The notes under the pieces: generated by a model
Database searches by the model: none
Seen by the model: the letters and a program-made list of their open reading frames with translations, nothing else
What the model was told of the DNA's origin: nothing
In this document: one piece after another, positions 42,774-52,140 of the stretch
Layout of the letters: each line of letters opens with the position of its first letter
Position numbering within the stretch: the first letter of the stretch is position 1
Position numbers and translations under genes: made by a program
Assembly (NCBI RefSeq): GCF_003334765.1
Contig: NZ_QOWT01000007.1
Direction: 5' to 3' (one strand)
Length of the DNA stretch: 64,000 bases
DNA from: Escherichia coli
GTDB taxonomy: Bacteria; Pseudomonadota; Gammaproteobacteria; Enterobacterales; Enterobacteriaceae

Positions 42774-43792
42774 TGCAGCAGGTTTTTTTCCAGGAGACTG
42801 AGTTTCTCAATTCGGTTATTGATTATAATCATAAAATAGAAGCAGAAAATCTTTGTCTGGATATTGCTTATGGGACTGACAAAAATTTTCTTTTTGGATG
42901 CGGAATATCGATTGCTTCAATATTAAAATATAATGAAGGAAATCAATTATGCTTTCATATTTTTACTGATTATTTCGGTGATGACGATCGCAAATATTTT
43001 GATGCCCTGGCCAGGCAATATAAAACAAGAATTAAGATATATTTAATTAATGGTGATCGACTCCGTTCATTACCCTGCACCAAGAACTGGACTCATGCTA
43101 TTTATTTTCGTTTTGTTATCGCCGATTACTTTTTTAATAAAGCACCCAAAGTTCTTTATCTGGATGCAGATATTATTTGTCAGGGAACTATAGAACCACT
43201 TATCAATTACACGTTTTCTGAACATACAGTCGCAATGGTTGTTACAGAAGGACAAAAAGACTGGTGGGCAAAACGTGCTCATTCGTTAGGTGTTGCTGGG
43301 ATTGCTAATGGTTACTTTAACTCCGGTTTTTTACTGATTAATACTAATCAATGGACGAATGAGCGGGTTTCTGCACGGGCCATTGCAATGTTAAGTGATC
43401 CAGAGATAGTCAAAAAAATAACACATCCTGATCAGGATGTATTAAATATGTTATTGGCAGACAAACTTGTTTATGCTGATATTAAATATAACACTCAGTT
43501 TAGTTTAAATTATCAACTAAAAGAAAGTTTTAAAAACCCAGTAACTAACGATACAGTTTTTATTCATTATATTGGTCCAACTAAACCCTGGCATGACTGG
43601 GCCTGGGATTATCCAATATCACAAGCTTTTATGGCGGCAAAAAATGCTTCACCATGGAAGGATACTGCGTTATTGAAACCGGTTAATAGTAATCAATTAA
43701 GATACAGTGCTAAACATATGTTGAAAAAAAAGCAATATATCAAAGGATTTGGCAACTATCTTTTGTATTTTATAAAAAAGCTAAAGCATTAA
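42773..43792 (+). CDS. waaO: GT8 LPS outer-core alpha-1,3-hexosyltransferase (WaaI/WaaO-like)
   Basis: 339 aa GT8 paralog; 1-nt overlap with waaB stop. Confidence 0.65.
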   Translation: MQQVFFQETEFLNSVIDYNHKIEAENLCLDIAYGTDKNFLFGCGISIASILKYNEGNQLCFHIFTDYFGDDDRKYFDALARQYKTRIKIYLINGDRLRSLPCTKNWTHAIYFRFVIADYFFNKAPKVLYLDADIICQGTIEPLINYTFSEHTVAMVVTEGQKDWWAKRAHSLGVAGIANGYFNSGFLLINTNQWTNERVSARAIAMLSDPEIVKKITHPDQDVLNMLLADKLVYADIKYNTQFSLNYQLKESFKNPVTNDTVFIHYIGPTKPWHDWAWDYPISQAFMAAKNASPWKDTALLKPVNSNQLRYSAKHMLKKKQYIKGFGNYLLYFIKKLKH

Positions 43793-43802
43793 TACTGATA
43801 AT

Positions 43803-43931
43803 CTATACTCTAAATAATTCGAGTTGCAGGACAAAAAGCCAGTGGCGTTTTGAGGAACGCTTGCGTTGGCCCTGAAATGCCGAGTAACTCGCCGATGCAG
43901 CACATGCAACTTGAAGTATAACGAGTATATA
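43803..43931. repeat. ERIC/IRU-like imperfect palindromic intergenic repeat, variant centre
   Basis: Ends CTATACTCTAAATAATTCGAGTTGCAGG ... GCACATGCAACTTGAAGTATAACGAGTATATA are inverted copies of each other, a sequence class I recognise as ERIC arms; the centre lacks the canonical ERIC core. Confidence 0.45.
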
Positions 43932-43955
43932 AAGTAATGATATAAGGATAGCCTT

Positions 43956-44972
43956 GTGAACTCATTTCCTGCCATAGAGATAGATAAAGTTAAAGCCTGG
44001 GATTTTAGGCTTATTGATGAAAATACTGCTGAAAGTTTAAATGTTGCCTATGGTGTCGATTCCAATTATCTTGATGGTGTAGGTGTTTCCATTACTTCAA
44101 TTGTCATTAATAATCGACATGTTAATCTTGATTTTTATATTATTGCTGATGTTTATAACGACGATTTCTTTCAAAAAGTTGAGAAACTTGCTGAGCAATA
44201 CCAATTAAGAATCACACTTTATAGAATAAATACTGATAATCTTCAGTGCCTGCCTTGTACACAAGTCTGGTCAAGAGCAATGTACTTCCGTTTATTTGCT
44301 TTTCAATTATTGGGAGTAACACTTAATCGTTTGCTTTATCTTGATGCCGATGTAGTTTGTAAGGGAAATATTAGTCAACTATTGCATTTAGAGTTTAATG
44401 GAGCGGTGGCTGCAGTAGTCAGGGATGTAGACCCAATGCAGGAAAAGGCGGTAGTCAGATTATCTGATCCTGAACTTCGGGGGCAGTATTTTAATTCTGG
44501 TGTCGTTTACTTAGACCTAAAAAAATGGACAGAAGCAAAACTAACCGAAAAAGCACTGTCTATTCTTATGAGTAAAGATAGTATTTATAAGTATCCTGAC
44601 CAGGACGTTATGAATGTCCTACTAAAAGGGATGACAATATTCCTGCCACGTGAGTTCAATACTATATATACAATAAAAAGTGAGTTAAAAGATAAAACGC
44701 ATCAAAAATATAAAGAGTTGATAAAAGAGGATACTCTTCTTATTCATTATACTGGGGCCACCAAGCCGTGGCACAAATGGGCAATTTATCCATCGGTAAA
44801 ATACTATAAAATAGCTTTAGAAAGATCCCCCTGGAAAGATGACTCACCACGAGATGCAAAATCAATTATTGAATTCAAAAAAAGATATAAACATCTGTTA
44901 GTGCAACATCATTATATCTCAGGACTCATTGCAGGAGTGTGTTATCTTTGCCGAAAATATTACCGTAAATAA
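43956..44972 (+). CDS. waaJ: GT8 LPS outer-core alpha-1,2-glucosyltransferase
   Basis: 338 aa; N-terminus and body closely match recalled K-12 WaaJ/WaaR (…SFPAIEIDKVKAWDF..., C-terminal HHYISG.IAGVCYLCRKYYRK). Confidence 0.8.
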   Translation: MNSFPAIEIDKVKAWDFRLIDENTAESLNVAYGVDSNYLDGVGVSITSIVINNRHVNLDFYIIADVYNDDFFQKVEKLAEQYQLRITLYRINTDNLQCLPCTQVWSRAMYFRLFAFQLLGVTLNRLLYLDADVVCKGNISQLLHLEFNGAVAAVVRDVDPMQEKAVVRLSDPELRGQYFNSGVVYLDLKKWTEAKLTEKALSILMSKDSIYKYPDQDVMNVLLKGMTIFLPREFNTIYTIKSELKDKTHQKYKELIKEDTLLIHYTGATKPWHKWAIYPSVKYYKIALERSPWKDDSPRDAKSIIEFKKRYKHLLVQHHYISGLIAGVCYLCRKYYRK

Positions 44973-51080: not shown

Positions 51081-51207
51081 TCACTTCATCCTTCAAGCTG
51101 TCTCTGCGGCGGCTGCCTGCGTTCACTCCGGTCACTTACTTTTGTAAGCTCCCGGAGATTCACTTAGCTGCTGCCTTGATACCGCTCGAATGATTTTGTG
51201 AATTTAC
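51081..51207. repeat. ERIC (IRU) element between hldD and waaF
   Basis: Gene-strand core GTGAATCTCCGGGAGCTTACAAAAGTAAGTGACCGGAGTGAACG (plus 51120..51163) matches the ERIC1R-complement/ERIC2 primer sequence GTGAATCCCCAGGAGCTTACATAAGTAAGTGACTGGGGTGAGCG with compensatory stem changes; about 127 bp. Confidence 0.7.
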
Positions 51208-52140
51208 GTTGATGTCGCGATTCAGCCAGGCCATGTATTCCGTTACGCCTTCGGCAACGGTTTTGAACGGTTTGTCATAACCCGCCGCGCGCAGATTCGT
51301 CAGATCTGCCTGCGTGAATGCCTGATAGCGGCCTTTCAGTTTATCCGGGAACGGAATGTATTCGATCTGGCCTTTCTTGTGATAAGCAAGCGTTGCATCG
51401 GCTACCGCCTGGAAGGATTCCGCACGACCAGTACCGAGGTTGAAGATGCCGGAAACGCCATTTTCCAGGAACCACAGGTTTACATCTGCCACGTCGCCAA
51501 CATAGACGAAGTCGCGTTTAAAGTTCTCGCTACCTTCGAACAGCTTCGGTGATTCACCGTTATTAAGCTGGGTGTTGAGATGGAAAGCGACGCTCGCCAT
51601 GCTGCCTTTATGGCCTTCACGCGGTCCATAAACGTTGAAATAACGGAAGCCAACAATCTGTGAGTTTGCTTCCGGCAGAATTTGACGAACATATTCATCA
51701 AACAGGAATTTCGAGTAACCGTAGACGTTCAACGGTTTTTCGTACTCGCGGGATTCAATAAAGTCGGAAGTGCGACCGCCGTAAGTGGCTGCGGATGAAG
51801 CGTACAGGAACGGGATTTCACGCTCCAGGCAGTAGTGCAGCAGCTCCTTGGAGTATTGATAGTTGTTATCCATCATATACTTGCCGTCCCACTCGGTGGT
51901 GGAAGAGCACGCGCCTTCGTGGAAAATCGCTTCGACATCGCCGAACTCTTCGCCAGCCATAATCTGGATCAGGAAGTCTTCCTTATCCATATAGTCTGCG
52001 ATATTCAGGTCCACCAGGTTCACAAACTTGGTGCCGTCTTTCAGGTTGTCCACCACCAGAATATCGGTGATGCCTTTGTCATTCAGGGCTTTAACGATGT
52101 TGCTGCCGATAAAGCCCGCGCCGCCGGTAACGATGATCAT
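51160..52140 (-). CDS. hldD: ADP-L-glycero-D-manno-heptose 6-epimerase, open frame extended into the ERIC element
   Basis: 326-aa ORF; residues 1-309 read as HldD ([23 protein letters not shown] ... EYMAWLNRD), then 17 extra residues [17 protein letters not shown] encoded by the repeat; recalled K-12 protein ends ...WLNRDA at 310 aa. Confidence 0.85.

Follow-up and report, generated by a model that had tools for sequence, protein, structure and literature searches.

The stretch of DNA analysed here (the window) covers 64,000 nucleotides of Escherichia coli and contains an R2-type waa (LPS core) locus, judged by the annotated strain M217, which is 100% identical. The genes of this locus follow the order waaQ-G-P, a family-8 glycosyltransferase, waaB, waaO, waaJ, waaY, waaZ and a GlcNAc transferase. 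A spacer of 163 bp lies between the stop codon of the waaO/waaI-like gene (43790-43792) and the GTG start codon of waaJ (43956); this length had already been read from the sequence alone, and the open reading frame limits and the RefSeq calls in M217 agree with it. The same sequence-only reading took the entire spacer, 43793-43955, for an ERIC-like palindromic element, ERIC (also called IRU or RU-1) being the enterobacterial repetitive intergenic consensus. An ERIC-type repeat is indeed located inside the spacer, but the repeat proper occupies only 43804-43929, beginning 11 nt past the stop codon and ending 14 nt short of the waaJ Shine-Dalgarno sequence. The coordinates of all features are collected in Table 1. 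An open reading frame of 64 aa on the minus strand (43781-43975) runs antisense through the whole element; crossing the palindrome and being absent from the RefSeq annotation, it was treated as spurious. ERIC-borne open reading frames have been noted earlier (Delihas 2007, PMC2759123).

Table 1. Features of the waaO-waaJ spacer and its borders (coordinates of the window)
Feature	Coordinates	Strand	Basis or remark
Stop codon TAA of the waaO/waaI-like glycosyltransferase gene	43790..43792	+	11 nt 5' of the element
Core-less ERIC-family miniature inverted-repeat element	43804..43929	+	126 bp including both TA copies
Left copy of the duplicated TA target	43804..43805	.	K-12/R2 alignment
Left terminal inverted repeat TATACTCTAAATAATTCGAGTTGCAGGA	43804..43831	+	SeRU-1 positions 100-127, 28/28 identity
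Hairpin module replacing the canonical ERIC core	43832..43888	+	homologous to ~70-80-nt insertions in full-length ERICs
First module hairpin CAAAAAGCC-AGT-GGCGTTTTG	43832..43852	+	predicted fold
Right inner segment and right terminal inverted repeat (..GCAGCACATGCAACTTGAAGTATAACGAGTATA)	43889..43929	+	
Right copy of the duplicated TA target	43928..43929	.	K-12/R2 alignment
waaJ Shine-Dalgarno sequence AAGGA (43944-43948) and GTG start codon	43944..43958	+	outside the element; conserved with the K-12-type locus

The ends of the element were compared with SeRU-1, the 127-nt consensus printed in Table 1a of Delihas 2007 (PMC2759123). The two inverted termini on which the sequence-only reading had relied are both present, and alignment to the consensus matches the arms and leaves the centre unmatched. 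Besides the left arm, which agrees with SeRU-1 throughout (Table 1), positions 43897-43929 are identical to SeRU-1 positions 1-33 at 32 of 33 nucleotides. The outermost 25 nt on each side (43804-43828 and 43905-43929) are 80% complementary to each other, and the number of matches to a 25-nt arm expected in shuffled sequences is 0, placing the arms far beyond chance. Individual ERICs also resemble the element at its ends: the left arm is identical to that of the ERIC upstream of gyrA, and the right segment shows 92.7% identity over 41 nt to the ERIC between cusF and cusC of K-12.

Comparison with other E. coli waa loci, which had been suggested along with the ERIC assignment, revealed a clean empty site. 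In K-12-type loci, represented by MG1655 and the ST131-like strain U12A, the waaO-waaJ spacer lacks the element and measures 39 bp, compared with 163 bp in the R2 type. Alignment of the junctions gives a net 124-bp insertion in the R2 type with TA at both limits, a pairwise comparison that would look the same after precise excision. The empty junction of K-12 reads ..GGGAAAC-TA-TAAAGTAATG.., and the filled junction of R2 reads ..GATAATC-TA-[TACTC...GAGTA]-TA-TAAAGTAATG... The TA is single in the former and duplicated in the latter, as is characteristic of ERICs, whose mobility is reportedly marked by integration at a TA and doubling of that dinucleotide (De Gregorio et al. 2005, via PMC2229807 and PMC10969869).

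The full spacer was found in about 487 of 5,426 complete E. coli genomes, 478 of which carry it at 99% identity or higher, while the empty junction of the K-12 type occurs in about 1,040 genomes. Since waaK, the R2-specific GlcNAc-transferase gene, is present in about 500 complete E. coli genomes, the carriers of the element roughly equal the set of R2 core types, and the element is essentially fixed in the R2 lineage. The sequences flanking the element are 85.3% (upstream) and 87.0% (downstream) identical to those of K-12. Because divergence is similar on both sides, the element is not a recombination breakpoint, and it was rejected as the boundary of a 'hybrid' R2 locus.

The centre of the element is of a different nature from its ends. 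The central ~66 nt do not match the SeRU-1 consensus, the ERIC2 primer/core sequence is absent from 43804-43929 and occurs in the window only at 51120-51141 (in the copy between hldD and waaF), and the cusF-cusC ERIC of K-12 (L005) aligns with the waa element at its two ends only. The earlier remark that the centre is not the canonical ERIC core is borne out by these comparisons. A BLAST search of the spacer against E. coli genomes returned partial relatives that include the centre. For example, the ERIC between pepB and iscX (L003) has an insertion of ~71 nt directly after its left arm (..GCAGGA followed by CAAAACGCATTGCGTTTTGAACAGCGCTTGCGCTGGCCCC..) and then continues with a normal core. The ERIC upstream of gyrA (L004) has two insertions, and the right-hand one is homologous to the waa centre (CAAATCCGCATGGAGCGGATTTGAACGCTGCTTGCAGCGGCCCC..CCGAATAACC) and joins the right inner segment at a junction identical to that of the waa element. 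Alignment sets the waa centre onto the modules of both ERICs, the waa module being shortened by 18 alignment columns. As judged from these alignments, the waa centre is an ERIC-internal hairpin module of the ~60-80-nt type, not random sequence. The RU-3 repeat of Delihas was also considered as the identity of the centre and rejected; its peptide and its sequence are REP-like.

Two longer elements illustrate how such modules are placed. Over its first ~75 nt, the waa element shows ~93% identity to the left arm plus left-site module of an element in E. albertii (L016) and of another in E. coli SCPM-O-B-8794 (L034). Both of these elements are about 280 bp long, and in both of them homologous modules flank the core on either side as direct repeats. 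The 3' part of the waa element corresponds to what follows the right module in L016 and L034. In addition, 107 copies of the module were compared, and their first hairpin takes 27 different stem forms that show compensatory changes, with stem pairs such as CAAAACG/CGTTTTG, CAAATTCGT/ACGAATTTG, CAAATCTGC/GCAGATTTG and CAAACCTGCC/GGCAGGTTTG. Since these variants stay complementary, hairpin formation in the module is maintained.

The layout of two arms enclosing a module with no core is found at other loci and in other species. A second core-less copy in E. coli lies between uhpA and a DUF6708 pseudogene / ilvN in ST131-like strains (L002, 2500-2624); it is 125 bp long, 80% identical to the waa element, and shares with it the gap of 18 alignment columns that sets both apart from the 141-bp form described below. 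The arms of the uhpA-ilvN copy are more decayed than those of the waa copy, its predicted fold is poor (z = -1.6), and it occurs in only part of the species. Other species were scanned with the module pattern CGTTTTGARNRRCGCTTGC, taking one genome per species and covering at least 120 loci. Many of the matches were chance occurrences in unrelated phyla, and those in Enterobacterales were flanked by ERIC arms. Among the matches listed, Citrobacter amalonaticus S646 (L055-L087) has 29 complete copies with a module, of which 28 are core-less, and 18 of the 22 copies in Serratia marcescens keep the core beside the module, ratios whose comparison between species is biased by ascertainment through the module pattern. 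Core-less copies are likewise present in C. youngae, Pectobacterium and Serratia. In S. marcescens, an ERIC often contains two or three modules, of differing types.

The core-less copies of C. amalonaticus S646, at least 28 at distinct positions, range from 121 to 145 bp with a mode of 141 bp, and 250 kb sampled from this genome contained 35 arm pairs against only 4 core matches. Such copy numbers, with many core-less copies and few canonical cores in the sampled DNA, suggest that the core-less form multiplied in a burst in C. amalonaticus. A profile built with 32 core-less copies from outside E. coli (nhmmer) has one match in the 64-kb window, at 43805-43929 (E = 2.1e-23), and this match spans profile positions 2-141, the full length of the model. 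The nearest relatives of the waa element among the matches listed are short C. amalonaticus copies, with 81-82% identity. The occurrence of the core-less layout at many unrelated loci argues that arm, module and arm without a core form a propagating ERIC sublineage, not a one-off product. Furthermore, the 18-column gap shared by both E. coli copies argues for descent from a copy that was already core-less and already had the short module.

Taken as a whole, the waa element is very probably a non-autonomous, core-less ERIC MITE composed of a left arm, one hairpin module and a right arm. As its architecture suggests, such an element could have originated from an ERIC of the L016 and L034 kind, whose core is flanked by two directly repeated modules, if a deletion between these modules removed the core. 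The core-less form would then have spread in this state, mobilised in trans by a transposase for which the arms would be the recognition sequence and TA the target. The R2-type lineage would have received such a copy, already core-less and short in its module, between waaO and waaJ, and the copy would have become fixed there. The element would be co-transcribed within the long waaQ operon and fold into a closed hairpin, which would hold the upstream stop codon and the ribosome-binding site of waaJ at about the distance of the empty spacer. Any effect would be one on segmental mRNA stability, with the hairpin acting as an exonuclease barrier or as a substrate of RNase III or RNase E, as reported for Yersinia ERICs.

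The sequence-only reading had called for RNA folding of the spacer, and the sense strand of the element does give a stable predicted structure (-41.8 kcal/mol, z = -3.98), with none of 200 shuffled sequences folding as well. The antisense strand reaches -34.8 kcal/mol (z = -2.3), a canonical ERIC -52.4 kcal/mol (z = -7.8) and the 141-nt Citrobacter copy -63.6 kcal/mol (z = -6.9). In the predicted sense fold, the arms close the stem and the first module hairpin is kept; in the Citrobacter copy, the arm stem is predicted to close four small hairpins. The evidence on folding consists of these single-sequence folds and the direct count of hairpin stem variants; the RNAalifold consensus on the core-less alignment, in which the centre varies in length, is weak (-13 kcal/mol).

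How such a hairpin might act within the operon depends on its surroundings. No terminator-like site was found on the plus strand from 43300 to 44400, and the stem is followed by TAAAGTAATG and not by a U-tract. An intrinsic terminator or attenuator was thus rejected, the pattern of a GC-rich stem and U-tract being absent from this interval, and without a terminator-like tail, polarity through transcription termination at the element is unlikely. A promoter inside the element was rejected as well: one weak 9/12 match lies at 43789-43818, and the number of promoter-like matches, 8, is within what chance gives (5.1 +/- 2.2). When the hairpin is folded, 11 + 26 nt would be left between the stop codon and the waaJ start, as against 39 nt in the empty K-12 spacer. 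The element is expected to affect polarity and waaJ translation little, because there is no U-tract, the waaJ Shine-Dalgarno sequence lies outside the element and the folded spacing is close to that of K-12. Whether it exerts any measurable regulatory effect is rather doubtful, and a near-neutral mobile-element insertion is the most likely status of the element.

The likeliest of the alternatives is that the hairpin is a selected regulatory RNA which, by governing processing or stability of the waaQ operon transcript, would make the amount of the waaQGP-S-B-O segment independent of that of waaJYZK in R2-type strains. The sense fold, stable and better than the antisense one, would fit such a role, as would the location of the element just past one gene and just before the Shine-Dalgarno sequence of the next, and the compensatory changes that preserve module hairpins. 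The element is also nearly invariant in ~480 genomes, but the genes on either side vary just as little, as recent common ancestry would lead one to expect. A precedent comes from Yersinia, where ERICs near stop codons were reported to lower upstream transcripts via an exposed RNase E site in the 3' arm, an effect limited to one ERIC orientation (PMC2229807, PMC10969869). In the waa transcript, the AU-rich arm is on the 5' side. Going by the sequence orientation in Delihas 2007 and by the 2024 review, we infer that the waa element is A-like in the A/B orientation classes of De Gregorio et al. and opposite to the orientation of the Yersinia RNase E model, which counts against the regulatory role. 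For this other orientation, only a possible stabilising role was reportedly proposed. Moreover, K-12-type strains, with their empty 39-bp spacer, have an identical Glc-Glc-Glc main chain, and the element is therefore not needed for it. A selected regulatory hairpin thus seems unlikely.

A bolder combination of ideas would have the core-less lineage transposing independently as an uncatalogued family that ERIC-PCR and searches based on the core would miss, with its dozens of copies in Citrobacter amalonaticus showing the core to be dispensable for mobility, and at the same time have the hairpin of the R2 waa operon set the ratio of inner and early-outer to later outer-core enzymes; all of this together is quite improbable. 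Equally little can be said for the possibility that a canonical ERIC was inserted at the waaO-waaJ site first, and that gain of the module and loss of the core happened in situ as a local accident. ERIC internal insertions and palindrome-induced deletions are both documented phenomena, and intermediates with a module and a core exist. However, the same layout, junctions and short-module gap are seen at uhpA-ilvN and in short C. amalonaticus copies, and the presence of at least 28 core-less copies at different loci of a single genome speaks for spread of the core-less form itself. In addition, a canonical ERIC at this position was seen in none of the R2-type loci among the complete E. coli genomes searched. 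Lastly, the notion that the centre is a canonical core diverged by point mutation, or that the palindrome is a chance or terminator-like feature of the spacer, can appeal to a length (126 bp) almost equal to that of a canonical ERIC (127 bp) and to a weak, arm-driven Rfam match (V_AS5, 16.5 bits), but its probability is close to nil and it is refuted by the module-family alignments and the profile match: the centre aligns column by column with a recurrent module family and not with the core, nearly perfect arms make heavy divergence confined to the centre implausible, a U-tract is missing, and 0 arm matches are expected in shuffles.

The waaO-waaJ element is one of several ERIC-related sequences in the window. 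The sequence-only reading had located a second ERIC at hldD-waaF and concluded that the LPS core locus was colonised twice by this repeat family, with the waaO-waaJ copy in variant form; both points hold, as the sequence at 51086-51198 matches the published consensus with 78% identity over 113 nt (E = 5e-23). The stretch 51081-51213, where the genes are on the minus strand, is a degenerate full-length ERIC that overlaps the 3' end of hldD and adjoins the start codon of waaF. At this position K-12 has 15 nt (GCATAAGAGCTCTGC), compared with ~133 nt in the window. HldD has 310 aa in K-12, with ..AWLNRDA immediately before the stop, and 326 aa in the window, the 16-residue longer tail being encoded by the ERIC. 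The full hldD-waaF ERIC stretch is present in ~480 E. coli genomes, about as many as the R2 type, and by their distribution both copies appear to be specific to the R2-type locus. Elsewhere in the window, the yibN-grxC spacer (60324-60427) contains a strongly degenerate ERIC that aligns with 108 nt of the consensus at 69% identity (E = 5e-4) and in which a remnant of the core, CCCCAGCGACTTATTGTTATAAGCTTCTGGGGA, can be recognised. The gltS-recG spacer (17070-17123) contains a 54-bp mini-palindrome made of two ERIC ends, ATACCCGTCATAGTTCA ... TGAAGTATGACGAGTAT, with almost nothing between them. It resembles an ERIC from which everything between the ends has been deleted, as happens in palindrome-induced deletion.

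These results explain the odd 163-bp spacer of the R2 type as a mobile-element insertion, with a comparison of filled and empty sites. They also depict ERIC as a modular element whose arms, core and hairpin modules are separable, and in which a lineage would need no more than arms and a module to multiply, so that fewer features are left for an eventual ERIC transposase to recognise. Because neither ERIC-PCR primers nor annotation based on the core will pick up core-less copies, the number of ERICs may be underestimated in some genera such as Citrobacter. Should mRNA decay indeed be altered by the hairpin, the R2 and K-12 core types would differ naturally in waa operon expression. The element is ordinary genome litter, yet a tidy example of ERIC family evolution, and its practical value is modest.

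As for family membership, ERIC / IRU was reportedly described by Sharples and Lloyd in 1990 and by Hulton et al. in 1991, and De Gregorio et al. in 2005 are said to have treated ERIC as a MITE. The waa element shares with this family near-identical terminal inverted repeats, TA ends with TA duplication, and a size of ~126-127 bp. It is also ERIC-like in its intergenic site within an operon, between co-oriented genes of waaQ, in its hairpin-forming predicted transcript and in being multi-copy in Enterobacterales. Tested feature by feature, it was found to have the terminal repeats, the TA duplication with filled and empty sites, and a hairpin palindrome of ~127 bp, although its fold is weaker than that of a canonical copy. 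What differs is the conserved core: the central inverted repeat, target of the ERIC1R/ERIC2 primers, is replaced by ~57 nt of different sequence, and no match to the core lies within 43804-43929. Because the core is missing, we file the waa element as an ERIC-derived core-less variant, not as a canonical ERIC. The core belonged to the original family definition, and membership is here carried by the arms, the target duplication and the intermediates. Placement in the core-less sublineage agrees with the full-length match to the profile from outside E. coli and with the copies at multiple unrelated loci.

Rfam, which has no ERIC family as such, offers RF02818 V_AS5 (Vibrio RNA AS5) as the sole family that recognises ERIC-like sequence, and this family is evidently built on a Vibrio ERIC-like repeat. 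The cusF-cusC ERIC of K-12 (L005, 1413-1532) aligns with the whole 129-position V_AS5 model at 44.5 bits (E = 7e-9). Membership of the waa element (43803-43921) in V_AS5 was rejected, with 16.5 bits and E = 4.3 from the arms only against a gathering score of 96 bits. No Rfam family recognised the waa element at threshold, and the 44.5 bits of the canonical ERIC are likewise below the gathering score. A literature search for ERIC together with waaJ or the R2 core found nothing relevant.

The internal modules and the central deletions of ERIC both appear already in the literature of 1996-97. Internal insertions that keep a well-folded RNA were reportedly described by Sharp in 1997 ('Insertions within ERIC sequences') and by Cromie, Collins and Leach in 1997, and palindrome-induced loss of the ERIC centre is said to have been described by Sharp and Leach in 1996; all three papers are cited in PMC3696847. 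Compared with ERICs carrying internal ~70-nt insertions, the waa element has a homologous module, a left junction like that of the pepB-iscX ERIC and a right junction like that of the gyrA-upstream ERIC; these two keep a canonical core beside the module, whereas the waa element has a shortened module only. Compared with ERICs that lost their central palindrome, the arms are kept and the centre is gone in both, the extreme case being the gltS-recG sequence, but the waa element retains a module and the product recurs at many loci in a lineage-like manner. The 121-145-bp copies of C. amalonaticus S646 have the same layout as the waa element from end to end. The modal Citrobacter copy, with its 141 bp, has four central hairpins, and the E. 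coli copies differ from it in lacking the third and fourth.
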